Part shown: positions 1 through 64,000 of the stretch, one piece after another
Layout: each line of letters begins with the position of its first letter
Position numbering within the stretch: position 1 is the first letter of the stretch
From: Phyllosticta citribraziliensis
Taxonomy: Eukaryota
Length of the DNA stretch: 64,000 bases
Assembly (NCBI RefSeq): GCF_038025025.1
Contig: NW_027117341.1
Location: 1-64,000 of the forward strand
Direction of reading: 5' to 3'
Translations under genes and position numbers: made by a program
Notes under the pieces: model-generated
Seen by the model: the letters and a program-made list of their open reading frames with translations, nothing else
Told to the model about the DNA's origin: nothing
The model's database searches: none

Positions 1-2481
1 TAGCTAAGAATAAAGCTAATACATCTAGTACTACTAAAGATATTAGTACTAGTTAATTAACTTAATAAGATTCATATAAAGAGACTAAAGATTTATATAA
101 TACTAGACTTTTATTAAATAATAATAAGAGAGGACCTACCCCTATTCTCCTATATAATTTCTACTTAGTCCTAGTAGTAGAGGTAAAAGAACGTACCTAA
201 GACCTAGGGTTAACTTATATAATTTAAGCTCTAGTTATAGAGGTATTTATAAAGGTACCGCGCTTAGATATTAATTAATTTAAATCTAAGATTGCATCCT
301 TAAATAAGTCTTAAGTACAGCAGCAACTAAACTATATATAAAGGTAAAACTAGGCTCTTAAGTAAATACTCTTAAACTATACTAATAGACTTAAGGAAGT
401 TCTAAGGGAAGGATATATTAGGCCCTCTTTATTAGCTTAGTACCTAAGACCTATTACCCTCTCTTAAGATCCTTCTACTAGTAGAGTTATAAGGACTCTT
501 AGACCTCCTCCTAACTATATAAGGGAAACTACTACTAAAACCTCTACTTTATCTTTAAGTAGTAAGAAATACTAAAGTAGTAAGGTTCCTAATCCTCCTC
601 TTCTTACTAATAGAGAAGACCCCTTATATAAATACTAGACCCTCCTTATATAAAATAAAATTAAATAAAACCACAATCACTTTACTAAAGATATAGTAGA
701 GGAGACTAAATAGAATATTATAGGTTATATTATTTCCTATATTAGTAGAGAAGTCTTATATTACCTAACTCCTTTCCTTACTTCTTATATAAAGGCTAAT
801 AAAGTCACTCTAGATAAGGATATCTTTAAATTTCTAGATAACCTCCTTTAGAGTCTATATAAATATAAGGATATAAAGAAGTAGTTACGCTCTCTTATAT
901 ACTATATCCCTATAGACCTTTAGAAGTTTTAATTAAACTTTATATAATTAGCCTTAGATGTAGATCTTCCCTAGGAATAGTAGAAAGAGGACTTTTATAA
1001 TATAATAGATCCTCTCCTTTAAACCTATATAGTTACTATAGAGTAAGATAGAGATATTAACTTTTATAAGTACCTCTAATAAGCCTACCCTATTACTTAA
1101 AGTCTTAGTAACTACTATTCTAACTATAGAAAACTAATACTTATATTATATAAGGAATAAGTAAAGAAGAGATAATAAGAATAAGTAAAGATAACTATCT
1201 TAAGTAGTATAAGTACTTTATCTTCTAGTTATACCTAGGTATAATCTATATCTAGGGCTCCCTCATATAATATAACCTATAAAGGTAAAGTAGAAGTCTA
1301 TATAGAGATTAGACTATATAATTACTATAGCTAGTTTAGCTATTTATAGAGATAATGCCTATAACTAGAGATAAAGGTAATAGAGTTAGTTAAAGAAGAA
1401 AGTACTAAAGATATCTATATAAATAAAGGAGATTAGTCTTTATTAGAAAATAATAAGACCTAGATAAAGTCTCCTACTATAGGTCTAAACTTAGAGTAAT
1501 ACATATTAAGGGTTCTTATATAAATCTTAGTTACTTTATTAGAGGTATACCCTTTACTATATAAACCTTAATTATATCTAATAGCCGCGCCTTAGAAATT
1601 CGTGCCCTAGCTAATACTAGTACTAGTAGTATAAGTTTTATTTACCCTAAGCTACTACTAACTCTCCAGTCTATAGGTGCTATAAAAAAGAGAATAATAG
1701 GTAAAGGGCTTAATATTACTAGGTTTAACTAATATATAAATAAGAAAGTTAATTTTTACTTTTATCTTTAACTCTACTTCTAGGATTAAATAGTTTCTAC
1801 TTATACTTTTATTTATAATATTAGCCGTAATAATATAATTCTTAGGTAATAGTTTTTTAACCAGCATGATATTCTTCTAGACTATAAATAATATAAACTA
1901 GTCTAGAGATAGCTACTAGTTAACTAATCCTTTTAGCATCTTTTATACCTACTAAAAGTCTCTATGTAAAGTAATAAACTGCAGAAAGAATATTAAGTAG
2001 ATATAGACTATAGAGATAAAAACTTTAGTAAATACCTTCTTCCCTTAGTATAGGTTATTAAGGGAATTAAATTTTAAACTTAAGATACTTTTAAGCTTTC
2101 TATCTATAAAATACAAGTTACGCTAATAGAGATCTATACTATTAACCTTATATAAGTTTAAGCGGCTCTTAAAGATAAAGAAACTAAGGAATTATTAGCT
2201 TCTAAGCTACTAGCTACTTATAAGGAATTTTAAGATGTATTTTCTAAAATAGAGTCTAATAAGCTACTACTATATTATATAGGAGTTAATTATAAAATAT
2301 CTCTTATATATAATAGTCTACTAGAGCTTCTACCTAGCCCTCTCTATAGAATATCTCTAGAGCAGCTTAAGGCTATAAAAGAGTATATTATTAAGAATAT
2401 TTAGAAAGGCTTTATTATAGAGAGCTTTACTACCTATACTTCTCCTATTCTTATAGTAAAAAAGCCTAGTAGGGGATAGAG
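1..2481 (+). mobile_element. RIP-degraded Ty3/Gypsy LTR retrotransposon relic (gag-protease-5' RT), truncated in RT
   Basis: Very AT-rich, TpA-saturated, with stops in all frames. Reverting C>T/G>A changes restores a gag-like KVPDPPLLTDGEDP (~582-623), a CX2CX4HX4C zinc knuckle (1317-1358) and the aspartic protease motif ALADTGASG (1604-1630). It also restores a pre-RT/RT start (~2219-2481): YKEFQDVFSK.ESDKLPP...VDHKISL...PLYRMSLEQLKAVKEY...KGFI..S...YASP.L.VKKPGGGWR. Confidence 0.92.
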
Positions 2482-2688
2482 AGAATAGGATTTAAACTCC
2501 TAACTTAAGATATTTTAAATAAATTAATCTAGACTAGATTAGTTAGGGTTAATATATAGACTACCTTTCTATTTAAAGAAAACTAATCTAGCCCTAAGTT
2601 AAAAATCCTATAGTAGTTAGGCTTTTTTATTAATAGTATTACCTCTACTATTATTAACCTCTCTATACTAGATACTATAGAAACCGCC

Positions 2689-5600
2689 CTAGAGATCTTC
2701 GCTTTCCTCTGCGCTACTCTCATCTAACGACGTTGATGTAAGAGATCGCGGCGCCGGCTTCATTCTTCGTATACCACCAGTCGAAGACCTCTTACTACTG
2801 AGCGATGGTCTTTTCGGCGTGGATTCAAGCGAGGGTCCGCGGGCGAGCCGAGTGCGGGGACTATACGGCTCCTCTTCGATGTTGAACGTCTGTCGCGCCC
2901 TCAAGTCGTGATCAGCTGCCCAGTCATCATTTCCCTTCCTGTCGTGCATCATGTCAATGTACTCGTCATAATCCTCCATCACCTTCGAGACGCGATCGAA
3001 GTGTATCCTCCTGAGTTTCGCCGTCTTGAACTTCTTCTTTTTCATCGCCTCGCGTTGCGACAGGCCCGCGTCTTGTATTTCTTGTTGGCGATCGTACTTT
3101 GCCAAAGCCACGGCGGTTTGGAATGCATTACGAATCTGTCGTCCGTTCCAAGTTGCCTGCTCGTCGCGCTTTTTGAGCTTGTTGTAATGGGTCTTTGCAT
3201 AGCTCAGGATTTTCTGCTCGTCGAACTCCACCTCGACCTCCACATCAGGCTCCCGATTCATCTTCCGGATTCTCTCGAGACACGTCTTCCAGATCTGGAC
3301 CGTCGAGCTCTCGTCGAGCCGCGGGTAGAACATCGCGATTTTGATTCGCGAATGGAAGGCTTCATCGATCGCTCCGAGACGATTTGTCGTTAGGAACAGG
3401 ATGCCTGAGTAGTACTCGAGCGTCCGAAGAAATACTACATAGGTCAGCGGTGGCGTAGCACGAAAACGGGCTGGATGGATTACCGGAAACCAGTGCATTG
3501 CGCTTGACGTCGCTATTCTCCCGCTGCGCGAGGAACACGTCCGCTTCGTCAAGGAGAAGCACACAGCCCCACAGATGTGCCAGCTTGAAATGGTGCTCGA
3601 GTTTTCGTTCAACTTCGATTGCAGTCTCTCCAATGTCTCCGCAGGTGATGGGGTACAAAGGGCGTCTGGTGTACGCCGCAATCGTTTCCGCCGTCAAGGT
3701 CTTGCCGACTCCGGGAGCACCATGCAATAGTATCACGAGACCTTTGCCCTTGCCCTTGACGAGGTCCATGGAGGATTCGTTGTCTGCCCCAGCACCATTC
3801 TTGCGCACGCCGGAAGAGTGACTTTCCACCAAAGCAAGCACCATCTTTTTATGCCGCTCGTTCATCACAAGCTGATCGAGCCCGCTCTCGCTGTGCGCAT
3901 GAGCTTCGTCAATGCTCTGCATTTGCTCGACGTTGAGGTATTCTACAGTTCACTCAAAATCAGTCCTTCCAAGCAGGTGTCATATAACTCACTCCATGAG
4001 CGGCTGCGGAACACAAAAGACAGCACATCGCGAGGCAGGAGAAGCAAGTGTTCGTCATCAATTTGGTCGCGCTCGTTCGGCATCCACAGAGTTTTTGCAC
4101 GATCGTGCCCACTGACGTACTGCTCAAATCGTCTGATCTCGTAGGAGTTGTCTGGAAAATTGTTGGTGCATCCGGGGCAACCATCGTTGAAACAGTTGGT
4201 CCACTCGTAAGAATCTTCGGTGGTGGTGCTTGACAGCATCAACCGATCGATGGCGAGATCTTTCAGAACCGTCGTATCTTTTGCCATGCGATAGCCTGTT
4301 CTTGCGTCAACAACCACTTCCCCGTGGACCTCTTCCGGGTCGGTGCCCGTTGAAAACCCCTTGTAGAGTTGATGGGATTCAGAGAGAAATTGGACAAAAT
4401 TGCGACCGCGTTCAACTATAGTAGACTTTTTCTCCCAGAACTTGGGGTCAAAATGGGCGGGATAGAAGTCCAGGTCCAAGATCTTCTTCTCTCCATCGTA
4501 CGGGCGGATCACCGACATCATCCGCAGTGTCTCCGCCCCAATATGTGCGCCGTCGAAGTCGACGTAGTGCAAGTCGAGCCTGAAGTTCTCGGCCAGGCGC
4601 CTGGGAGGGTCGTCTCGGCGAGGTCGCCTAACTCCTGGCATACTCCCCGGGGGAGGACGACTTGACAGATTCATGCGACCTCCACTCACACCAAAAACGC
4701 GAAAGGCCCGAGGGTAGGACAATTCATCCGTGTCCCTCAATTTCCTCTCCTTTGAAAAGACCAGTGTTCCAGGTGGAAACAAATGCCACATGTTTTCGAA
4801 TGCGATCGTGTCAATTGTTGCCTTGTCAATCTGCTGTCGAAGAAGGACCGTGTCCCCGAGATCTGTGTCGATAAAGTTCAAAAGGACTTCCATGTGGGAT
4901 ATGCAGAGTTGCATCTGCGCTACCTGAGTCACGTCGACGAACCCTTCTTTCAGCGAGTCCTTCTTTTTCTGAATTTCCCTCGCAATCCGGCCTCTTTGTT
5001 CAACGAATATCTTGAAAGGCGGCACGAAGACGGTGGGCGTTTTACTCATCGTGCAACCGCTTATGAACTCCAGCTCATCCAGAAGGATCCGTGAATTGAT
5101 CTGGACGCGCTTTGGGTCATCTTCGTGGTCCGCCCGAAGACCAGAGACCGGGGGCTTGTGGGATATCCTCTTCCCGCTTTGATCTGTTGCCCGTATTTGC
5201 TTGCTGGAGTGTCCGTAGTAGACTACCAAAACGTTCGATCTGAGGTCTTCGCGATTGAAGCCTCGAGACGGCTGCCAGGAGAGGAACGACAAGTATTTCA
5301 CGTCCAGACTCAGAGGTCTCTCTCCGAAGTATGGCGTATTTACTCGTGCTTCGAGCGGAAAATCGGATGCCTGTCGAGTGCTTTGCTTGTCAGTCTTTGT
5401 TTCCTAGTCGGTACCTGGTACTCACAGTTTTGGGGGCTCTTGAGGCAACAAGCTGTCGACTTTTTGTGTCAAGATTGCGAGCTGCATTCTGAGATCATTT
5501 ATCTCGTTTATGGAGCTTTGCGGCCCATCATCCGTAAGCGGTGAGCTTTCTCGGGGGTCTTCGTTTGCTGGGAAGCCAATGGAGGGAGAAGTTTCGAGGC

Positions 5601-5718
5601 TGTCCTCGTTGAAAGCTACCGCCGGACTCTGGGGTATCAATGCGGTAACTTCATGGGAGGCATCCCAAAGATGGGAATTCTTGTTGCCATCCTGCGGCAA
5701 AACAGAGAGCGTATCCAT
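2689..5718 (-). CDS. Large fungal AAA+ ATPase (DUF7025-like N-terminal region + single AAA module), 4 exons
   Basis: ORFs 5422-5718, 3943-5301, 3362-3922 and 2689-3681 are joined in frame by GT-AG introns (~5381-5425, ~3945-3991, ~3437-3484). Motifs: Walker A LLHGAPGVGKT, Walker B LLLDEADVF, FLRTLEYYSGILFLTTNR, DEAFHSRI, WNGRQIRNAFQTA, and N-terminal IAFENMWHLFPPG. Confidence 0.92.
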
Positions 5719-6390
5719 TCGCAGCGGCTGCTGGATGCTTCGTCAATTCGGAAACAAGATTCTGAGAGTTTGACGCGAAAAAGAAGTCGGAACAAAGAAA
5801 CTGGCAGCAGGCAGACAGGCTTTGCGAGGGACAGCCTGGTCGTACTGTGGAAAAGAGCAGCGTACCGCAGCGACTGCGTGGAGTCGTGGTTTTACCAATC
5901 GGCTGTAGCACTCATTTGTCAGGCGACAGATGGCTGAGCACGGTAAGCTGCATTCAATCCGACAAGGATTGTATGCAGCGCTCGAGAAGCAAGAATGGGG
6001 CCGACCGAAGAGGATTTGCTCAGTTGGCGCATTTGGGGGCCACTGCTGTGCGTCCGCTCCAGACCACGGCGCTCCACCGGTTGGGGCTGGTTGCTGGCAC
6101 AAGAATGATGTTCCACACGGTGCCTTCTCAGCAAGCTGCCTTCTCCGTGCGCCAGATTGAGAGCGGTTCAAGCCGAATGCAACGATTGAGGGCAGTGGAA
6201 AGCTGACTGGCTCACTGGTTGGCCTGGGGTAAGCCGCATGAGATGGCTTCCTTAGTAAAGGGACTGCCGACAGGCCTCTCGCAGCTCGCTATCGCAACCT
6301 TCAGCCTCGCGGCGTTTCTGTGCCTCCATTCGAGCGTTGGTGTCTTTTCTCAAACCTGAGTTCAATGCGACAACGACAAACTCTCCAGCC

Positions 6391-8841
6391 ATGTTGCGCC
6401 GACGCGCGACGATGCCGGATGAACAAGTGGTCAATTTCATGAAAGAGCACCTTGACGGATCCATTCACGGCGCCTTGGACACACGACCACAAGCGGGCGT
6501 AAAGTTCGAGGGCCGCGAGTGGAAACCGACCTTCGAGGCCGTCAGCATGTTGGAACCCAGGTGCAGCCAACAAGCGACTTCTTCGACAATTGAAAGACGC
6601 TGATATTTTTCATAGAGAAGATGGACTTGTCAAAGTCGAAGCTTCGTGAGTGCGCTCCTACCATGGCAGTTGGAATTGACTGATGTGCGTCAAACCCAGC
6701 ACAACACAAGATATGAAGTGCTTCTACATGGACTGCATCAAAGCACAAGATAAATTGCGCAACACCATGGAGAAATACCAAACTGTATCCCGGGACCGAT
6801 GCATCGAGCTCAAAAGGCAACAGACCTGGAAAGACGTTGAGGAGGGACTTGACGAGTTCTCCAAAGAGGTTGTCAAGGCGGAGCACGAATACCGAGAAAA
6901 GCTAGGATCTGTCAGGTCGGGATTCCGCAGATTCAGCAACAATTCAAACAGCGTCAAGGTTTTTGCAGATCTGATACCGTCTTCCGACTCATACCTCTCA
7001 GTTTTGTGCGGTGGTATCAAGCTCGTCTGTGTGGTACGTGTTAACAGTCGCTTGGGCTCGTCGTCAACAGCGGCAGCGGGTGTTGAAAGAAATGAGACTT
7101 CCGGATCCCGCTGCAGTAACAGACCATAGCTCCCCACGCGTGTCTACGCTGGGCATTTGTAATGGCGGACGACTGCTCCGCCAGTACAAAAATGGCAGTG
7201 GACGAACTCTCGTTTCTTTCGACACCCAAAATGCAGCAGAAAAACCTCGCTGATTGCTTCCCAGGCTGCCAGTCGAATCGGACAAATCAGGAAGATCGTG
7301 ACCGAGTTTCTGCTGCAAATCCATTCGTTGCTAGACGACAAAGGGAAGCTGCTAGACCTCTACAGCAGAGATATCGAGCTGCACCGCAGGAATGCGGAGT
7401 TGTCGACCTGCATCCTAGTCGTCCTTGCCGAAATCGTACGCTGGCTGTACGAGAAACCATGGAGTAAGTCTACCCGCCAACCGCTGAATACGAGTTCGAT
7501 AGACAGTGACTGACACGCTCCAGAAAAAACCATGAAAGGAATGCTCCGTCCCGAAAGTTACGAACATCCGCTTATCGAGAAGATCGACGAGATCAAGATC
7601 AAGGCGACAGCTTTCAAGGACCAGGCAAATTTCTGCGAGCAGAAGAACGTTGTCGATATTGCGTCAGACACGTCCCTTCTCCGCCGCGACGCAGAGCACA
7701 ACCAGATAAGGCAGGGCATTAGTGAGTTGAGGTGCCATCGTACCATCTTGGATCGTATCTGACCGTTTCAGTTTACGAAACGATGAAAAGCGGCCATGAG
7801 GCCATCCGCGGAGAACTCGAGATTTTGAAGGAGCGGACAAAGAGCTTGAACTATGTGCTGGAATGCCTGCAGAGTGATCCAAAGCGGATACAAGAAGCTC
7901 GTCAGTTGATGCCATCCTCACAACGGGTTAGAAGGCTTACATATGCAGATCCCTATCTGTCCAAATCCAAATTGCTCAAGAGCGCGAAGCCGAGGGAGCT
8001 CAAGTACAAAATCGAAGATCTTGAGGAAATAATTGCGTACGATCCAGCAGTGGTCGAGGAAGATTGCACTTCAATGCGCAAGCTGCAGTTCACCATGAAG
8101 CCGCCGGATCAGGACAAAGCCGTCTCCCTCCTTCGCAATGAAAGGCTTCAGGGTTTTGTAACGGCGCAAAGGTCCGGAATGCTCCTCATCCACGGCCACG
8201 GCAACACGACGCCGCTTTCGCCTGTCAGTTTCGTCTGCGCGAAGCTGGTTGAATCGCTTGTCGTTTCATCAGAGGAGACACCATCCAGGATTCTGAGCGT
8301 GGCATTCTTTTGCGGGAGACATCGGGACGAGACGAGGGATGTGGACGCGCATCCACCGGGGATGCTTCTGAGCATGCTCTTCCAATTGCTCGAGGCGCTG
8401 CGTCACGAGAGTCGTGAAATCAACTCAAGACCGCTTCAAAGGGCTCTGAAACACTTCGAGCCGGACAATGTCGACAGCATCCTTGAAGTTTTCGCTGGTG
8501 TCGTGAAGCAATTACCACCCGAGGTGATGCTTTTCGTGGTTGCTGACGCTGTTGTTTTCTATGAAGATCGACACAGAAGGGAGGAAATGAAAAGAGCTGT
8601 CGAAGGATTGCTGGAACTTGCCTTTATCGAGGACGGCCCTGCTGTCAAAGTCTTGATGAGCAGTCCGTCAAAAACGCACACTGTGTTGGAAACCTTCAAG
8701 GTTTTGGAGGAGGACATGGAGGAAAGCTTGATCCTGGACATGCACAAGTCATATCCAACAAAGGGTGGATTCAGGTCCTTGAACTGGACACTTCCTTCTC
8801 CAGAGATCAGTAACTCGTCCGATGAAGAGGAAGACGAATGA
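6391..8841 (+). CDS. STAND/NACHT-related protein: helical N-terminal domain (Goodbye/DUF7708-like) plus a degenerate NACHT-like domain lacking the Walker A lysine
   Basis: Six exons stay in frame, with introns ~6561-6615, 6646-6699, 7034-7264, 7464-7523 and 7722-7771. The N-terminal ADLIPSSDSYLSVLCGGIKLV..AA.R is typical of fungal STAND N-termini. The C-terminal part follows NACHT topology: SGMLLIHGHG...SPVSFVCAKL, VAFFCGRH, GMLLSMLFQLL, FVVADAVVFYE, VKVLMSSP. Confidence 0.75.
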
Positions 8842-9087
8842 AGGCTTTGTGTTGATGGGCTAGAGCGCAAGCAAAGCTCACGCATCCAGCACATTCAGCT
8901 TAGAGGGTTCTGGTTCTTGGAGTAAATATTCTCAGCTGTCGCGGTCGACGAATGGCGCTCCGCTTCTCCTCTCACAAGCTGTACCACACATTACCGCTGC
9001 CCGCTTGCATCCCCCTAAGCCAGCCTCTGTGACTTCAAAATCTTGCCCTTGCCTTTTTCTTTGCTTTGCTCTATCAGTATTTCTCAG

Positions 9088-10492
9088 TCAAACCATTTGG
9101 CCCAACTTACTGAATGATCGTTCTCCGTACAGAGTCTTCAAAATCCACTCGTGCACCACCTTTGCAATCTCCAAATTGTTCAATTCCAGGTGCATGAACA
9201 GGCCATTGCCAGTGATCCCCAGGTCGTCCAAGAACAGCCACTCAGGGTTTCCGCCGACTTGTTTCAGATAGTCAATAACGCAGTGATCCCAAGTGACATG
9301 CACGCTTGCGTTGGAGGTGAGCGCGAGGTATGGAACGCTAGCAATTTTTGGCAGTTTGTGAACAGGTTCAACTTGCAGGATGCATCGGCGCAGTTCGCGC
9401 GTATCCTGACCGACTGGCTGTGTTTGCAACTCTTTCGGGTCAGAGACGGGCGGATCATAGTCAAGGCGCGTGTTTACGAGGCCCCACGGACGCGTCGGAA
9501 AGGAGCCTAGTTTCGTTGGATCCAAGCTGGCAAATAGCTGAAAAGGCGTGTTGGCAGGCTCAAGGTTGATGCTGCCGAGAAGGAATTGCGGGCAGTCATT
9601 GGACCACAGAATCGGGGCAAAGGACCCAAATGAGTGAGCGAGGACGAAGGCAGGACCGATGATGCTAAGCAGTTTGCAGCCCGCAACGCGAACGGCGTTC
9701 TCCAATGCAACGTTGTTGGTAGTGACTGGAATGATTGAACCGGCAAAGGCTTCGAAAATTGGGTCCCCTCGTAGACCGCTCTAGCAGACAAGGTCAATCT
9801 GAGATTCACGCATTGGTATTCGGATTTGCCTACACCGGGCCACTTGTTGTGGTTCTTAGCCGTGGGATAGAGATTCGCGGTTTCAGGCGCGGTGTATCCC
9901 TTTTCTACCTCTTCGATTGTCGACCCCGGCGTCAATGGAAAGCTGCTGATATCATTCTCACTTGAACGGCCCACGCCTTGTGTGTCCAACAGATAGACCT
10001 GGTAGCCGAGACCGAGGAAGAATGATGCGAAGCCTTTGCGATTGTCTGGAGTATTCAACCAGGACTGTTGAGTTGGGAGTCAGCACACTGACCCTTTCAG
10101 AATGCAAAGCGGACTGACCGCTCCCGAAGTTCCTGTTTGGACAGCGCTTAGTCTTCAATCGCACTATGAGATGCGCAAGTCCTACCTCCAGGATGAACAA
10201 AGACCACCGGTTTCGGCTGCAGCACGCCCGTCGCCGGAGTCAACTTCTCAACATATATCTGGTCAACCAAGATCGCGCCACTGGTGGGGCCTGACGTTCC
10301 CTTAATGTATCGACCTCCGATGTAGAAGAAATCACGGTAATGTAGAGACTCTCGACTTTGGCAGGAGGGCGCAAGTGCGTCAGCCCCAACGCAAGGCGCT
10401 TGTGTCTGGGAGGTGGCAGAGGAGAGACCGGCGAGGTAGACGACCACGAATACCAACACTTGCCAGAGGGCAAGTCCAACACAGGGTCCCAT
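9088..10492 (-). CDS. Secreted alpha/beta-hydrolase (lipase/esterase-like)
   Basis: Hydrophobic signal peptide, then FFYIGGRY, DQIYVEKLTP, VVFVHPGG, WLNTPDNRKG, VYLLD..GVGRS, nucleophile elbow AHSFG, INLEP and LGITGNGLFMHLELN. Three introns, including a 14-nt micro-exon at 10119-10132. Confidence 0.85.
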
Positions 10493-11474
10493 GTCCGACT
10501 GTATAGACGCATCAGAGGGCATGAGAGCGCAGGAGGTTGTGGAGGAGGAACAGTTGTCACTGAAAAACGATTGTTCAAGGTTTTCGCGAGTCACGATCTG
10601 AAGATTTCGGGGACGCCACAATCAATTTTGTGCTGCAGGGCGGGAGTGCGCCGGGTTTTCTTTCAGAATAAGCTCGTGGGGAAGCCGGCTCGCAGTAGTT
10701 TCCGCGCTGGCTCGGATGAGCAGTATCGACGGTACAACGCACATCACAGAATGCGATCAGTTTGGGCGTCGCGCAGATTGAGTGGAATTCGAGTTTTTCA
10801 AGTCTGGTAGGAGGGAAAAGGCAACGCCATCGAGGTGTTTTTCACACCAACCGGTACCGTAGACCGATTGCAAAAGAGCCTAAACACCGAGCTCTAGGTC
10901 CGAGGACATGCCTTGAGGCTGCTAACGGCTGCTTCAAGGTTTTACTCCGGGTAGAGATATCCGCAGCACGTGGGCGTAAGGTATGAGTTTGCGGCACGTG
11001 CCGGTGGTGGTTTCATTCTTAGACTGACGTCAAACGTTGGCGGAAACTCGCCTTGAACTTGAGTGATACATGCGTGCAAAGAACCAGGCGGAACAGTTGA
11101 TCCATTCGATAATTGTCCGTCAAATACTCATGATACTTCTTCCACTCCAAGGGCGGCTTCATCGGGTATCATTTGGCGGAAATCCATGGGTGGTAGGAAG
11201 TTGCCGCATGTTCCGGCTTGTCGGTTCGTATAAACATTTTCTTCTGGACGGCAACTCTGCTGAGGACGAGCCGCACCCAAATGAGGATGATGGCTTTGAG
11301 CTGTTGGCGGGGTCCCATGGCATCTTCAAGTGAAAAAGGCTTTTGTGCACCCTGGTCTCAAGATGCTCCGCGTGGCAAGACAGGGATCCCAAGCATTTTC
11401 GCTGCACCTTGACTCCGAACATCCACCTCGCAGTGCCATCCGCTTCCATTGGCAGAGGTTGAGATTTCAAGCCT

Positions 11475-12151
11475 TCAGCTGTTGTTGACCAGCCTCTTGA
11501 CCTTTTCAAGCAAGACAGGCGCTTCTCTGCCTAGCTTCCTCTTCCCGTCCCTGCCTGGTTTGTGCGCCTTTGCCATGGCTCTCCTCATGCGCTCGCGGTC
11601 ATCAATTCGCTGCTGGCGTTGTTTCTCTGCCTCTTCCCTGGCCCTTTGGCGCGCCTCGGCCTCTTCCTTTCTCTTTTGTGCAATTGCGGCCTCTTTCGCA
11701 AAGGGCGTGGGCTTGGGTCTTCTCTTACGACGCTCATGCGCGGGCTGGTCGTCTTGAGGCTCGGGCTCTTTGGAATCCACCAGTGCCTGGCGGTCGGGGT
11801 GCGGGTCGAGTGAGGGTTCGGGCGCAGAAGCAGCCTGGTGTGCTGGATCGGTGTCGTCGACGGGTTGTGGTTTCTTTGGCTGATTCGCCAGCTCGCGCTC
11901 TTTGATCTTTGCGTATTCCTTCTTGATCTTGGCCTTGTGGATCAAGTCTTTCTTAATCTGCTGGACTGGAGAGGCGTCAGTGCTGTCGAAGAGAGTGGAG
12001 AAAGCTGGAACAAACCCTTGCGCCTGTGGGTGCCGTCCGGTAGGTTGGCTGGCCCAACCTGGAAGCCCTTTGAGCGTCGCTCAGTGCCATGCTTGGTCTT
12101 TTTGGCAGGGCCAGTAGAGTCGGTGTCTTCGCGAGGGCGTTTCTCAGGCAT
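11475..12151 (-). CDS. FYV7: rRNA-processing protein, Fyv7 family
   Basis: GFQVGPANLPDGTHRRK|VQQIKKDLIHKAKIKKEYAK and C-terminal GKRKLGREAPVLLEKVKRL. One intron at 11966-12015. Confidence 0.7.
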
Positions 12152-12894
12152 GGTCGGTGTTGGTTGTTTGGTGAAGCAGAGACGAAAATGTCGAGACGCG
12201 ACGAAATTCCACCCGACGGCTGCGGCGCAAGCAGGCCGCCGCTCCGCAATGACCCGGCGGCACAGGCGCAAGGCGAGGAGGCGACCTGAGGCAACGCAAC
12301 ACCACCAGCACAGGGTGTTCTCCGATTGTGCAACTGCAAGTGCTCGAGAAGGCGATGAGCAGCAGGGGCGCAGAAGAAGTCGATGCATCAGAAAAGCAGA
12401 ATTAATGCGGTCGCGGAGCCGTTGTTGGTTCTGGCGGCGCATCGTGTGACCTCCGGCTTGATCCCCGCAGCGGTGCATCCGCTGTTCGTCATCGCTGAGT
12501 CCACTTGACCTCTGCTCTCTCCTCAGAGTCACCACCTCCAACCCTCAACTCAACACCACCCGCCCCATTGCTACCAAAAGCCTCGACTCGGTCGCCGTCA
12601 TGATCCTCCGCTCGCCTTAATCCAGGCTGGTCTCTCTTCTCAGCTCGCCGCCAACACACTACCGCTCTGCTCCATCAACCATCACACGCTCATTATCCGT
12701 ACTCGGACCTGCTTCCACCCGTCCTTCTCCGACGCCTTTCTCTTGCACAAAGGGACGCACCGCGCCTCTTTCCCTCCTAGCTCCATCTACCCCCATCGTT
12801 TCCGCCCTCCTGCCGCCCTCCTGCTTTCCGGATTCCTTCGCCGTTCGCCCACCGATGAGCCGTCCGTAGGCTCTCGACACATGCACCACCTATC

Positions 12895-59586: not shown

Positions 59587-61929
59587 TTAGTCGCCATAGG
59601 TGACACCACTGCCTAAGCCCGCAGCCTGCCCCTTTCGGACCCTCAAAACAGTCTGCACATGGCCAATCGCGAGCGGCACGTCTTCTCCCGTAGCCAGAAG
59701 TCTCGCCGTCTTGACCACGTTCTTGATCTGTCTTCCATTCAACTCCGTGTTTGCCAGCTCCTTCAAATTGTCCTCTGTAAAACTGCTCTTGGCCGAGTCC
59801 GGCTGCACAAAGGTGCGCCAAATGAGGAGGCGGCTGTCGACGTCGAGCTGCGGGTAGTGGATCGTCAGATGAATGCGCGACTCGAACGCATGATCGAAGT
59901 CCTCGACGCGGTTGGTCGTAAGGAACATGACGCCCTGGTAGTACTCGAGCAGGCGCAGGAAGACGGCGACGAGCTTGTTGCGGTAGAGGTTGGAAGCGGA
60001 GCGCCGCTCGAGGAATACGTCGCATTCGTCGAGTAGCAGTACTGCGCCCCATTTGGTGGAGAGCTCAAGTACCCGAGTTAGCTTGCGCTCGACTTCCCCA
60101 CTCATTTCCCCAAGCTCTCCGGCGCTAATGCTGTACAGAGGCTTTTTCATGGCTTCGGAGACTGTGAGTAACGGCTAGCATTAGCATGTTGCCTCAATCG
60201 GTATCTGCGTGGATACAAACCAGACTCTGAAGTGAGTGTTTTGCCAGTCCCAGGCTGGCCGCTCAGGAGCATGATGATTCCCTTTCCTTTGCCCTTGATC
60301 ACGTCGTCAAAATCGTCCTTTCGAGATAGCTGGGCTTGGACAAATGCCCACACAAGCCGCTTGTAGTCGTGGGGCAGGACGAGCCTGTCGAAGGCATTCG
60401 TGTTCCAAACAATGTCATGAATATTTTCCACTTGTAGCTCAACTGTAAACTGTCAATACGGGCGTCTGCTACTGTTTGGATGAATTTACCCCAGTCTTTT
60501 GCTTTGAGACAGAAACCGTTTACGGTTGGGCTGCACAAAGCATAGTGCTCTTCCTTGAGAGACGTACAGGCTGTTCACCGTCAACTTTATCCGAGACACC
60601 ACGGGTTGCAAGTTGAAATCTTGGACGTCAAGGCGAAGCGCACTAGAGGACCACAAACCTTTGGAAACATCAGAATGCGCCGGTCTTTGCGGTCTGGCAG
60701 GAGGTGTATAATTGTCCTCGTCATAGTCATTGTCTGAATCGTCATTGTCCGAATCTTCATCATATGACACAGGAGCAATTGAGTTGTGGGGAGTGATTGG
60801 CTCATCAAGGGGAGCTAGTCTGGGGGAATGTCCGTCATGCTGCCGAAACGAGCTGCAGTCTACAATAACTCGTCCGTCGTTGACCTTTGCGAAATGTCAG
60901 TCATGTTCATGACCAAAACCAAAGCCACAGAAGATGCACTTACAGGTTGCTCGCGTGAAACACCGGAAGAGGGGGCATTTATCAAAACATAAACCCCGGT
61001 GTATGCTTTGTGGTGCACTCCCAACAGTTTCTCAAACTCGCGGCCCCTTTGCGTCAGTCGAGCACGTATCTCAGAGATGTTTGGTTTCAAGGCGCTGGGC
61101 AGGACGCTGAGCTCCGAGATGGGCTTGAGGCCTTTAAATTCGAGGATATCCAGACTTGTTCTTGCGTAGCCGAAGCTCTCGCCGGTGGTATCAACATAAC
61201 GACATTCGATATCGTAGCAAGGCGTAAGGGTAAGAGCACGATGGCTATATTTGCCACTGCTTGCAATATAGAGGCGCTCTTCTTTTCTGGAATGAACTCG
61301 GTTCCAGGCTTGAAAAGTGCCCAAACATAGTCGAACGAGATGACCTGGTTGTGCACCAGATCCTCAATCTGCTCCACGTATGGGAGAATCTCGGAGCTGA
61401 TGATGTCGAATAGTAGCTTGTAATGAGCTCTGCCGATTTGGTCGTTCTCGTCTTGAGGCTTGGCTTTGACAAACTCGTCCCATCGGTGGAAGAACTCGTG
61501 AAATGGCGCATTGAATTCAATCTTCTTAACGTTCGTGTTGATGCCCTCGTAACCTGCAAATACTGGACCAAGTTGTGCCTTGATGATTGGGCTCTGCACG
61601 ATGATGGAGTGCAAAGGAAACTCTGGCTCCTCCGTTTCTCCAATTTCTTCTTGGCGTCGAATGATCAGGGCGAACTTTGCTGATTCGGCGGCTTTTGAGT
61701 CTGTTTTGGGAGGCCCTTCTTTCCAGGGATTGAAGAGGCCAGTTCGATAAAGATTCTTGGTCTGGGCTGTCATACCTGCGCTGGGTGACTGCTGCTCCTT
61801 AGTGATAGCCTCCTTAACAGCCCGGTCTTCTTTCCCAAGCTTGCTGAATGATGGAATAATCTGCGATAGTACCGTTCTATCCAGAAGCAAGCCTTGATCA
61901 GGCTGTTCCTGAGTTTGAGGGGACCCCAT
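59587..61929 (-). pseudogene. Second large fungal AAA+ ATPase (same family as 2689-5718) with an apparent frameshift near 61290
   Basis: ISFDYVWALFKPG, CRYVD..GE.FGY, GRVIVD, Walker A LLSGQPGTGKT, Walker B LLLDECDVF, FLRLLEYYQGVMFLTTNR and LNGRQIKN. Four later introns splice in frame. The frame shifts at GGAACCGAG|TTCATTCC with no plausible intron. Confidence 0.8.
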
Positions 61930-62470: not shown

Positions 62471-63721
62471 TCATACGCGCAATTTTCGCGGGCGGCCCGG
62501 GCCTCTTTTCACGACTGAAGCTGCAGGCGGCGATTCGTCGTCTTCTTCGGCCTCCCGTCGCCCATCTTCCTGAACCTCGTCAACAAGTTCTTCATTCTCC
62601 ATCTCGACGTCCGGCTGCGCATCCTTCTTCTTGCGACCACCGCGCCGGGCAGGTTTTGTCGGCTCCTCTTGTTCAAGGTCCAACTCTTCGCCAATGCTGC
62701 TTTTCTTTTTCCGGCCTCGTGTCTTTTTGACCTTGAGATCTAGGCCTTCTTGTTCCGCCTTGGCCTGGACAGCCTCCACCAACTCTACCTCGTCCATTTT
62801 CAATCCCTCGAGCGCCTCGATATCCTGGGACTTGAGGTATGGCAGAGGCATTCCATCCCAAGTCAGCCCCACGTCCGTCCTGACAGTCTCGCTCTCACCC
62901 TTTTTGGCCTTCGCCTTCGCCTTTGTATTGCTCTCGATCGGCGGCGCTGCGCCCCCTTCTACCGTTGGCAGCATGTACCTGACTATGACACCCAGCCCCT
63001 CAAGCCCACGCGCCTGCGCGCTGCGATTCCACAAAAACTGCTCAATGCGGCCATCGTGCTCGATTTTCAGAAACCCCATGGGCCACCGGCTCCGTCCGAG
63101 TGCTTCGATGATCCCTTTTGTTGCGCTGTTTGTTGTTGCCAGTAGCCCCAGAAAGTCTTCCTGTCGCCACTCTGTTGGCGCGCCAGTGAACGCCCCTTCG
63201 AGCTCCCGCACTTTGTCTGGCCCAAGCTTTTTGTTGCTGCATTTGCACTGTAGGAGGACACGAAGGGGCCGGCTCGGTGGTTGGATTCGGGTTGTCGAGT
63301 CCGCAGCATCTGAGCTAGCAGCGGTATTCGTCTCGGATGGTGCCCGAGTGTTCGCGGACCACGGCACGGGGACTGGCAGCGTCCATGAGCCGAGCAGGTC
63401 GATACCATAGTCGCGAGCACGTCCTGTGCGTGTCAACTTGAAGCCGAGGCGCGCGAGCGTAGTGGCCACGGTGTATTCGTAGTGCGTGCCGACATAGACG
63501 GAAGCTTTGGAAGAGAGGTCGACGCGTTCGGCGTAAGCCAAGAAGGATGGCAGGTCATGGTGGTTTTCAGAGCCAGGGGCGATCCTTGACTCGGAAAGGT
63601 CGAGAGTTTCGCTCGATTTACGCGATTTACGCGTCGAAATGGTCGTGCTAAACGCGGCGTGGTGCCATTGATGGAGGGCTGGTACGATGCTCCGGAGGGG
63701 ACGGCGGAGCAAAGAGGTCAT
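62471..63721 (-). CDS. RRG7: Required for respiratory growth protein 7, mitochondrial (DUF2034, PD-(D/E)XK-like)
   Basis: Arg/Ser-rich mitochondrial presequence, then GTHYEYTV, L.RTG...DYGIDLLGSW.LP, VLLQCK, GPDKVRELEG and QFLWN. Confidence 0.85.
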   Translation of the reverse strand: MTSLLRRPLRSIVPALHQWHHAAFSTTISTRKSRKSSETLDLSESRIAPGSENHHDLPSFLAYAERVDLSSKASVYVGTHYEYTVATTLARLGFKLTRTGRARDYGIDLLGSWTLPVPVPWSANTRAPSETNTAASSDAADSTTRIQPPSRPLRVLLQCKCSNKKLGPDKVRELEGAFTGAPTEWRQEDFLGLLATTNSATKGIIEALGRSRWPMGFLKIEHDGRIEQFLWNRSAQARGLEGLGVIVRYMLPTVEGGAAPPIESNTKAKAKAKKGESETVRTDVGLTWDGMPLPYLKSQDIEALEGLKMDEVELVEAVQAKAEQEGLDLKVKKTRGRKKKSSIGEELDLEQEEPTKPARRGGRKKKDAQPDVEMENEELVDEVQEDGRREAEEDDESPPAASVVKRGPGRPRKLRV

Positions 63722-64000
63722 GGCACGGGTATTGCAGCGTAATCGGAAGACGGAAAGGCGTGAAATATGTTCATTGCTGAGATTGAGGCGCGAAAGAGAG
63801 CATATTCAAGAGCTCGAAGTGCCAATGGCTTGGTGTCGTCGTTGAAAGAGATTTTGGTTTCTGTTTCGGGGGTGTAGTTGCGGCCGGCAGAGCTTCGGCT
63901 GAACAGCCCTGTCAACGAGCTCACCCCGGCCCTACCCTCCCTCCCACCGCACCAGTTCATCACCGTCAACACCATCTTTTCTACCAGGTCAAGATTCGAC

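Follow-up and report, generated by a model that had tools for sequence, protein, structure and literature searches.

A recurrent head-to-head gene pair in Phyllosticta citribraziliensis encodes an AAA+ ATPase and a NACHT-like protein without a P-loop

The window analysed here is a 64,000-nucleotide stretch of Phyllosticta citribraziliensis DNA (contig NW_027117341.1), and the locus that concerns us occupies its positions 2689–8841, where two spliced genes diverge from a short spacer. The minus-strand gene (2689–5718) encodes an AAA+ ATPase of 961 amino acids (aa) in four coding exons (5718–5426, 5380–3993, 3942–3484 and 3434–2689), which are separated by introns at 5381–5425, 3943–3992 and 3435–3483. 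The plus-strand gene (6391–8841), referred to here as the partner, has seven coding exons (6391–6560, 6616–6645, 6700–7033, 7265–7463, 7524–7721, 7772–7900 and 7949–8841) and encodes a 650-aa protein related to fungal NOD-like receptors (NLRs). All nine introns of the two genes start with GT and end with AG. When joined, the AAA exons translate to an exact copy of the public protein P0003 (961 aa), listed as an uncharacterised protein of P. citribraziliensis, and the partner exons translate to an exact copy of P0001 (650 aa), listed as a “DUF7708 domain” protein of the same species. An earlier interpretation made from the DNA letters alone, which we call the sequence-only reading, had proposed a divergent pair of spliced genes separated by a 672-bp intergenic region; the translations agree with the public proteins letter for letter, and the spacer between the two divergent start codons does span 672 bp, ATG to ATG (5719–6390). 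This spacer is presumed to hold a bidirectional promoter together with both 5′ untranslated regions (UTRs).

The AAA+ protein is composed of DUF7025, AAA and AAA_lid_13 domains, all present and in this order, in agreement with the precomputed domains of P0003. The DUF7025 domain (PF22942) lies at 4444–4821 on the minus strand (Pfam, 64.5 bits, E 1.2e-17), the AAA core (PF00004) at 3506–3733 on the same strand (54.2 bits) and AAA_lid_13 (PF23232), a lid domain of fungal AAA+ proteins, at 2938–3318, also on the minus strand (57.5 bits, E 2e-15). Within the core we identified the Walker A motif GAPGVGKT (3698–3721, minus strand) and the Walker B motif LLLDEAD (3539–3559, minus strand), which are canonical, as had been claimed for them; both are invariant in an 11-sequence alignment, together with the sensor-1 motif TTN (731) and S-R (743) of the second region of homology. 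The nearest solved chains by sequence are those of Rix7, NVL, VCP/p97, Afg2 and Msp1 (E 1.8e-10 to 1e-6), and comparison of the core fold ranked p97 first (Z 14.6), followed by NVL, Yta7, FtsH, Vps4 and others. By sequence and by fold, the protein is a classic-clade AAA+ enzyme with intact catalytic motifs. In its AlphaFold2 (AF2) model, which has a mean predicted local distance difference test (pLDDT) score of 67.8, residues 187–600 are folded, mostly with pLDDT values of 80–90, and the ends are disordered; DUF7025 sits within this folded N-terminal region (aa ~187–600). A search of the ESM Atlas with the DUF7025 region returned DUF7025 clusters only, of which many exist. The protein ends in an acidic tail.

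The partner protein begins with a helical region that contains the DUF7708 domain (PF24809), encoded at 6956–7642 on the plus strand (aa 153–284) and interrupted by the introns at 7034–7264 and 7464–7523. DUF7708 is the only Pfam match of the full protein, scoring 27.9 bits in P0001 and 26.2 bits in P0002 against a cutoff of 25, and Pfam gave no WD, ANK, TPR or other sensor repeats, in agreement with the earlier claim that the partner lacks WD, ANK and TPR repeats. The C-terminal part (8128–8664, plus strand) corresponds to a NACHT-like, NPHP3_N-type nucleotide-binding fold without a Walker A motif, an assignment drawn from Pfam NPHP3_N, AF2 and VIA. When the last 261 residues were scanned alone, they gave a marginal match (24.9 bits, cutoff 24.8, E 2.6e-5, profile positions 6–163 of 164) to NPHP3_N, a profile that represents the N-terminal half of NACHT domains of the fungal type; 51 of 61 aligned relatives matched the same profile at E ≤ 1e-3, the best of them at 1.3e-12. 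The AF2 model, built with 33 relatives, has a mean pLDDT of 80.2, which exceeds 90 in the C-terminal domain, and shows long helices in the DUF7708 region. At the position of the P-loop it places a strand (residues 430–435), a loop and a helix (445–463), and further parallel strands follow at 468–474, 547–553 and 585–592.

Comparison of this C-terminal domain with known folds by VIA gave ORC/Cdc6 as the best match (Z 11.4, root-mean-square deviation 3.4, 171 residues aligned), followed by Avs3 (Z 11.0), MalT (Z 10.1), ZAR1 (Z 9.7) and CED-4 (Z 8.7), with weak Foldseek E-values (6e-3 to 7e-2). The N-terminal helices returned generic helical matches only (Z ~8.3–8.7, where the bar for helical folds is ~13). 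The nearest ESM Atlas clusters to the partner are NPHP3_N clusters from Ascomycota, and its Atlas model shows structural alignment to both NACHT clusters and clusters having HeLo or “Goodbye”-named N-termini. The NPHP3_N matches among the relatives, combined with fold scores of Z 10–11 to ORC/Cdc6, Avs3 and MalT, support the NACHT topology attributed to the protein by the sequence-only reading: its C-terminal domain is a real NACHT fold of the NPHP3_N type, with the alpha-beta-alpha arrangement of AAA+/STAND proteins (signal transduction ATPases with numerous domains). No winged-helix/HETHS part was found in the partner, whose chain stops at residue 650, ~60 residues past the core in the AF2 model, and the next gene past it lies on the opposite strand.

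This C-terminal domain belongs to a large family. The last exon of the partner, used as a query against 1.84 billion representative proteins, identified 1007 clusters at E ≤ 1e-3, 326 of them at E ≤ 1e-10. Among the 150 matches listed, the proteins measure 158–728 aa and the domain is always at the C-terminal end; many full-length relatives also match DUF7708. In one relative, P0085, RelA_SpoT takes the place of DUF7708 ahead of the P-loop-less NACHT-like domain, and in a structurally similar Atlas cluster HeLo is present in 64% of members. Such exchanges of N-terminal domain correspond to the “effector swapping” typical of fungal NLRs. We also observed a motif, P-x5-GGF-x-x-L-x-W, near the C-terminus of the partner (aa ~620–640, window ~8750–8810). 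In the 150-sequence alignment its two glycines are present in 89 and 98 sequences, its phenylalanine in 70 and its tryptophan in 76, and acidic tails follow it in several family members. The motif could be a docking element.

The active site of the NACHT-like domain shows important differences from that of a functional NTPase. The P-loop-equivalent position, between strand 1 and helix 1, reads LLIHGHGNTTPLSPVS (8182–8229, plus strand, aa 432–447); it includes HGHGNTTPLSP, has no GK[ST] and does not correspond to the Walker A pattern GxxxxGK[ST]. In the alignment of 150 relatives the same position reads roughly S-x-LLVNG-[NH]-x6-SPxSFVCAKL, again without GK[ST], and GK[ST] is present in none of the 25 partners that adjoin AAA genes. 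The motifs that follow the P-loop are kept, namely FFCG-x-H, QLL, hhhhDG-x-S-x-YE (Asp in 141 of 150 sequences) and K-LL-TSP (Lys in 146 of 150). The Walker-B-like strand, LFVVADAVVFYED (8530–8568, plus strand), coincides with the AF2 strand 547–553 and keeps its aspartate, and the “DE” of NACHT domains is absent. For NACHT proteins this motif is given as hhhhD[GAS]hDE in the accessible text of a survey of Sordariales NLRs (PMC12258605); in the partner family hhhhD[AG] is kept and the acidic pair is replaced (ADAVVFYED in the window, IDGISFYE in the consensus), so that the NACHT Walker B pattern is not found. Because GK[ST] is absent across the family and the later motifs are kept, the loss points to a conserved pseudo-NTPase and not to local decay. 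The lack of GKS/T in the P-loop of the partner, as well as the proposal that it is a pseudo-NTPase, therefore holds beyond this one protein, and by these alignments the partner is a family-wide pseudo-NTPase whose C-terminal domain cannot have a normal nucleotide site.

Canonical fungal NLRs (e.g., HET-E-like), whose N-terminus is of DUF7708 or Goodbye type, followed by NACHT (NPHP3_N) and by ANK, TPR or WD repeats, resemble the partner in the DUF7708 family N-terminus, in the NACHT subtype and in the post-P-loop motifs, of which FFCGxH, QLL, hhhhD and K-LL-TSP are recognisable in both. The partner differs from them in that it has no Walker A motif, no winged-helix/HETHS part and no repeats, and in that its gene is obligately paired with that of an AAA+ protein. 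Since the Walker A motif, the Walker B acidic pair and the third domain with its repeats are all missing, the partner falls outside the canonical fungal NLRs. Fungal NLRs were reportedly surveyed by Dyrka et al. in 2014 (PMC4986451). The survey of Sordariales NLRs selects nucleotide-binding domains and repeats, and its accessible text makes no mention of such a pair (PMC12258605). Where surveys select an intact nucleotide-binding domain plus repeats, a repeat-less and P-loop-less NACHT family of ~1000 clusters (50% identity) falls outside them. A search of the full-text literature, with subscription journals and supplements outside its scope, gave no description of the pair or of DUF7708 (PF24809), DUF7025 (PF22942) or AAA_lid_13 (PF23232).

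The arrangement of the two genes recurs well beyond P. citribraziliensis. Metagenome contigs searched with an alignment of the AAA family yielded 80 loci with flanks of up to 10 kb per side (857 kb in total), which collapsed to 54 lineages at ≥95% nucleotide identity. Upstream adjacency was assessed in the 28 lineages whose contigs extend 5.5 kb or more upstream of the AAA match, and downstream adjacency in the 20 that extend 5.5 kb or more downstream; partners were detected with a profile of the C-terminal domain over all six-frame open reading frames (ORFs). The partner domain was matched in 37 loci (E 1e-22 to 1e-85), always on the opposite strand and 2–5 kb upstream of the AAA match. In terms of lineages, the partner lies upstream and on the opposite strand in 22 of 28, as well as in two lineages with shorter flanks, and downstream in 0 of 20 (Fisher p = 1.6e-8 versus upstream). 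All 24 pairs are divergent (p = 1.2e-7 under random strand). In the paired loci the N-terminal exons of the partner, detected with a 330-residue profile, are positioned between its C-terminal domain and the AAA gene, with exon breaks at profile positions ~167 and ~231, as in the window. No third conserved gene was identified in the flanks of the 54 lineages, where the shared ORF clusters correspond to the AAA gene, the two parts of the partner and ORFs antisense to AAA. Of 22 long loci, 8 contain low-GC windows, at inconsistent positions.

Both families are large, the AAA side by its many DUF7025 clusters and the partner side by the clusters counted above, which is the one circumstance that would favour a chance meeting of two expanded fungal gene families. 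The upstream excess, the uniformly divergent orientation and the congruent trees described below refute this explanation and leave it a negligible probability; the sequence-only reading had named adjacency no better than chance as one finding that would undo it, and the adjacency is far from random. The pair is almost certainly a conserved, co-inherited two-gene unit of ascomycete fungi, with the qualification that the metagenome contigs carry no taxonomy. In prokaryotes, a scan of one genome per species returned 17 loci and no partner-like ORF among them; these loci match the AAA core only (aa ~620–775) at 26–38% identity, with a single 27-residue stretch reaching 56%. One metagenome contig, L008, holds two mirrored pairs. 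The main pair lies at 6321–8181 (minus strand) and 9878–12252 (plus strand), and the second pair occupies 514–2562 (minus strand) and 4265–5527 (plus strand), the second partner being a weak match (E 2e-5 and 4e-3). Two back-to-back pairs on one contig suggest that the pair duplicates as a unit.

The evolutionary histories of the two genes were compared in maximum-likelihood trees of the AAA protein and the partner domain from 25 pairs. Both trees recover the same clades, and their patristic distances are correlated (Mantel r = 0.78), a value reached by none of 5000 permutations. They have 9 of 22 bipartitions in common; with shuffled labels the mean was 0.16 and the maximum 4. The congruent phylogenies anticipated for homologs of the pair were thus recovered and, in combination with the recurrent pairing, show that the association is real and old. 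The head-to-head arrangement has survived path lengths of 2–3 changes per site without partner exchange. The median end branch is 0.72 for the partner and 0.36 for the AAA protein; the evolutionary rate of the partner is roughly double that of the AAA protein.

Six of the 28 testable lineages are exceptions to the pairing, and four of these keep a decayed, rearranged or DUF7708-only partner. In L024 only the N-terminal exons of the partner are present, in divergent orientation. The AAA proteins of L054 and L060/L080 fall into an outgroup clade, in which the divergent neighbour (L054:6271–7924 and L060:5605–6899, both minus strand) carries a strong canonical DUF7708 (117 and 111 bits). The 270-aa part that follows DUF7708 in this neighbour is conserved, has no P-loop motif and contains strand-helix motifs that recall an NTPase fold in reduced form; it does not match the partner family profile (hhalign probability 1.3). 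This arrangement may represent a form of the module that is either older or further reduced. In L057/L066 the pair is broken by an inversion and a hAT-type insertion. AAA residues 1–139 of L057 are encoded at 33–526 (minus strand), the N-terminal exons of the partner at 1539–2483 (plus strand), AAA residues 110–483 directly after these exons at 2438–3544, and the AAA remainder at 6630–8480; an insertion of ~3.1 kb with a hAT dimerisation domain (ORF 5904–6443) splits the AAA gene. A Rosetta-stone fusion of the two proteins was considered for L057 and rejected, as mapping with a closer AAA sequence (L012) shows an inversion with breakpoints in both genes.

Two lineages are wholly without a partner. 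One of them, L072, has an AT-rich block upstream, and its AAA gene is degenerate, with stops and no ORF of at least 150 aa; that one of the two partner-less lineages has a degenerate AAA hints at dependence. In the other, L033/L034, the AAA gene consists of two long ORFs, and four stop codons interrupt its alignment to P0003. In a 55-row AAA tree, no subclade of the main 50-row clade is without paired loci, and the partner-less rows are nested among the paired ones, which identifies the partner-less rows as losses. The window itself contains a second AAA gene at 59692–60437 (minus strand), probably extending to ~62076, which is 38–44% identical to the first AAA core and groups with L054 and L060 in the outgroup clade. 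No DUF7025 match was found in it, and its upstream neighbour is RRG7/Mrr_cat on the same strand (62474–63805).

Further evidence on the gene models came from four sequencing runs of four studies, X1 and X2 from organism A and X3 and X4 from a close relative, organism B. No run is on record as RNA; the contigs were used over positions 2000–9400 for joins and coverage only, not depth, and show neither true transcript ends nor expression levels. Across the four runs, contigs skip all nine introns of both genes at canonical GT..AG ends, which is the pattern given by spliced mRNA. The intron at 7901–7948 is 48 nt long, in frame and stop-free, such that its retention would add 16 residues; it is removed in contigs of all four runs, with the joint set 4 nt to the left in X3 and X4, and this settles the sole mismatch between the open frame and P0001. 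AAA-side contigs extend to 5911 (X1) and 6228 (X3), partner-side contigs start at 6237 (X1) and 6286 (X3), and a single X2 contig spans the entire 5719–6390 spacer. Based on these ends and on the spanning contig, the two transcription units abut or overlap head-to-head.

Such a layout raises the question of whether the two genes have only a bidirectional promoter in common and their products act separately. Consistent with co-regulation alone, the head-to-head spacer is short, being 672 bp here and ~1.3 kb in the median of 22 loci (range 0.4–2.7 kb start to start, a rough estimate), and both genes are present as spliced contigs in the same four runs. Against it, the arrangement was kept over the whole tree depth given above, with congruent trees and no partner swaps, no third gene is present in the neighbourhood, and a P-loop-less protein lies beside an intact ATPase in every paired lineage, which is hard to explain by regulation. 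We therefore regard shared regulation without shared function as improbable.

The flanks of the module have their own features. An AT-rich block (1–2650, no strand assigned, GC 0.25–0.29) borders the 3′ end of the AAA gene, outside the module. Over positions 1–2500 the GC content is 0.27, the TpA/ApT index 1.81 and the (CpA+TpG)/(ApC+GpT) index 0.13, compared with 0.42–0.53 and 1.14–1.55, respectively, in the two genes; frame 1 of the block holds 116 stop codons. Positions 1–2500 carry the signature of repeat-induced point mutation (RIP), so a RIP-affected flank, putatively a former retrotransposon, does stand beside the pair as had been noticed, and the AAA coding region is free of this signature. 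One X1 contig of the AAA gene continues ~190 nt beyond the stop codon (2501–2688) into the RIP-type AT-rich block, and hence the AAA 3′ UTR apparently lies within RIP-affected DNA. On the other side, a converging gene lies 3′ of the partner (9088–10621, minus strand); it is spliced, with a 47-nt intron at 9064–9110 that has CT..AC ends in X1 and X2, and run contigs bridge the last exon of the partner and this minus-strand gene. Its ORFs gave no Pfam match at 1e-5.

In organism B the two genes differ in their degree of divergence, 6.6% for the partner versus 3.6% for the AAA gene. The identity of the AAA protein to a sister species is 95–96%, and that of the partner to P. capitalensis is 62–69%. 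A contig of run X4 skips 238 nt within AAA exon 3 (3508–3745) at non-canonical ends, which removes the region from Walker A to Walker B; the same region is intact in X3. The public model P0004 (882 aa, P. citrichinensis) is likewise without the P-loop region. The 238-nt skip may represent a deletion allele or a pseudogenised AAA gene of the close relative. The partner gene in organism B is free of frame-breaking indels.

A further candidate function is that of an allorecognition (het/vic) locus or of a selfish poison-antidote pair, in which allelic or non-allelic incompatibility between variants of the two genes would kill on hyphal fusion or in meiosis. The NLR ancestry and the faster evolution of the partner point in this direction, as do the AAA ATPase core that is lost in X4 and kept in X3, the P-loop missing from P0004 and the RIP-affected block at the border of the locus. 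Opposed to this, orthologues of both genes are kept across species at the identities just given, no trans-species allele classes were seen, and the Pfam results for the two proteins include neither a HET domain nor an amyloid motif nor any known killer domain, with no search aimed at the amyloid motif. On balance an allorecognition or poison-antidote function is quite improbable.

The evidence for recurrent pairing and joint descent makes it probable that the AAA and partner products work together. In STAND proteins, the monomer/oligomer switch is driven by the protein's own nucleotide cycle. A partner without a P-loop would need an outside driver, for which the adjoining AAA+ protein is the obvious candidate. 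Our favoured reading, which we hold tentatively and with slightly less than even confidence, is an old co-inherited module in which the AAA+ protein remodels a nucleotide-blind, NLR-derived partner, with conflict or regulated cell death as its most likely setting. Under this reading, the NACHT domain of the partner, being devoid of nucleotide binding, could not switch itself, and the dedicated AAA+ protein would supply the ATP-driven step. The AAA+ protein would recognise the partner, probably through DUF7025, and would load its oligomers, hold them apart, restrain them or disassemble them; this action would gate the output of DUF7708. The setting would most likely be conflict or regulated cell death, a lean and not a demonstration, which derives from the NLR ancestry, from the RelA_SpoT- and HeLo-type relatives and from the birth and decay of copies. 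Taken separately, the proposal that the AAA protein acts on the pseudo-NACHT protein is plausible yet a little short of an even case, and an immune or cell-death role for the pair is doubtful.

The main rival to this reading is also built on a functional partnership, but a non-immune one. Here the pseudo-NACHT protein would be an adaptor that brings substrates to the AAA+ protein, comparable with MecA-ClpC and with Cdc48 cofactors, in proteostasis or in organelle or membrane-protein quality control. Pairing and co-diversification fit an enzyme and its adaptor equally well. The AAA protein is closest to Cdc48/VCP, NVL/Rix7 and Msp1, all of which are cofactor-dependent, the neighbours in the window are housekeeping genes, and no defence model was matched beyond generic AAA. 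What speaks for the NLR-like module over an adaptor is that the partner is derived from the NACHT domain found in fungal NLRs and has an N-terminal domain of NLR type, that it evolves about twice as fast as the AAA protein, and that several deep lineages, decayed or rearranged copies and a possible deletion allele in a sister species suggest turnover and not a fixed housekeeping function. We consider a non-immune adaptor rather unlikely.

Several observations weigh against our favoured reading of an AAA+ protein that remodels an NLR-derived partner in conflict or cell death. Nothing ties the module directly to defence: PADLOC models gave no match to the partner and generic core matches only to the AAA protein (IetA 3e-12, TRIP13 1e-8), and the rest of the window contains ordinary housekeeping genes, including MutL, an SNF2 helicase, Hsp70, a chitin synthase and a PI-kinase. 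In pore loop 1 the AAA protein has no aromatic residue; GETAIE stands opposite NKYVGE of Rix7 D2, with Thr facing Tyr, a reading that derives from a pairwise HMMER sequence alignment to Rix7 D2 only, and the family consensus at this position is GDLGxTP. Without the aromatic residue the enzyme is a poor fit to processive threading, and the threonine would be unusual in a threading unfoldase. Some AAA genes do without a partner: that of L033/L034 is largely open and its upstream neighbour is an unrelated glycosyltransferase, and no DUF7708 or NACHT-like gene lies beside the second AAA gene of the window. Many members of the partner family in the protein library are short (220–300 aa). All loci were fetched via the AAA gene, and the pairing frequencies apply to AAA lineages. 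Finally, as the contigs carry no taxonomy, the congruence of the trees may partly reflect the species history of orthologues, and paralogous pairs in one genome were shown by L008 alone.

Among known systems, the closest analogues are the bacterial iSTAND and iSTAND2 ternary systems, in which, according to the accessible parts of the two reports (Kaur et al., eLife 2020, PMC7159879; eLife 2021, PMC8195603), an inactive STAND NTPase is combined with a MoxR AAA+ protein and a vWA protein. As far as those parts describe them, these systems share with the fungal pair an inactive STAND module with a variable N-terminal domain of signalling or effector type, encoded beside an active AAA+ protein thought to set or drive the switch, and they are likewise multi-copy and diversifying. 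They differ from it, on the same descriptions, in that their AAA+ protein is of the MoxR clade and always accompanied by an effector-carrying vWA co-chaperone, whereas the fungal AAA+ protein is of the classic clade. The fungal pair, for its part, has no third conserved gene, its inactive STAND protein is derived from NACHT/NPHP3_N, and its genes are divergent, intron-containing eukaryotic units. No sequence link between the fungal pair and the bacterial iSTAND systems was found in PADLOC or in the scan of prokaryotic genomes, which gave matches to the AAA core only. The relationship is one of functional resemblance, an analogy, and not of membership.

The remaining comparisons are more distant. 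Plant paired NLRs are head-to-head sensor/helper pairs; each member is itself an NLR, and its P-loop is functional apart from known exceptions. They are like the fungal pair in their divergent genes, their shared promoter region and the dependence of one specialised member on the other; in the fungal pair only one member is NLR-like and the other belongs to an unrelated AAA+ family. The analogy to plant pairs drawn in the sequence-only reading accordingly stands for the divergent arrangement and is otherwise loose, given that only one of the two fungal proteins is NLR-like. TRIP13/Pch2 is an AAA+ remodeller that works with HORMA proteins, including those of bacterial cyclic oligonucleotide-based anti-phage signalling systems (CBASS), and resets the assembly state of a switch protein. 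It resembles the fungal pair in that a classic-type AAA+ protein is encoded beside a non-enzymatic switch protein. The resemblance of our AAA core to TRIP13 is weak (PADLOC E 1e-8; fold Z 11.7 for 6p8v and 10.5 for PCH-2) and no better than that to other AAA+ proteins, and the partner does not belong to the HORMA proteins, so that this remains an analogy only. NWD2/HET-S represents adjacent and often divergent fungal genes for an NLR and its effector, in the accessible text of the sources (PMC4344463, PMC3321046). There an NLR-type protein works with the product of an adjacent and often divergent gene, as would be the case here; NWD2/HET-S differ, as described in that text, in that they communicate through a shared amyloid motif and in that the NLR is a complete, P-loop-bearing receptor, and the neighbour in the present pair is an ATPase.

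In its fullest form our reading describes an undescribed class of two-component NLR-like switch in filamentous ascomycetes, in which a nucleotide-blind NACHT protein with DUF7708 would be loaded, checked or reset by a dedicated classic-clade AAA+ protein. It would be an independent eukaryotic counterpart of iSTAND plus AAA+, would serve regulated cell death or protect against mycoviruses, bacteria or non-self hyphae, and its copies would duplicate and decay as units. With all of these elements included, this description is possible but on the unlikely side.

To our knowledge, most fungal NLR-like genes have no known function. The present analysis indicates that part of a P-loop-less NACHT family is tied to one AAA+ family in a conserved head-to-head arrangement, and DUF7025 and DUF7708 each gain a concrete and testable partner. 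The pair suggests that the STAND scaffold may be operable in trans by another ATPase, and it would extend the theme of an inactive STAND protein combined with an AAA+ protein from multicellular bacteria to eukaryotes. With two genes and one promoter, it would offer a simple genetic system for work on regulated cell death in fungi.

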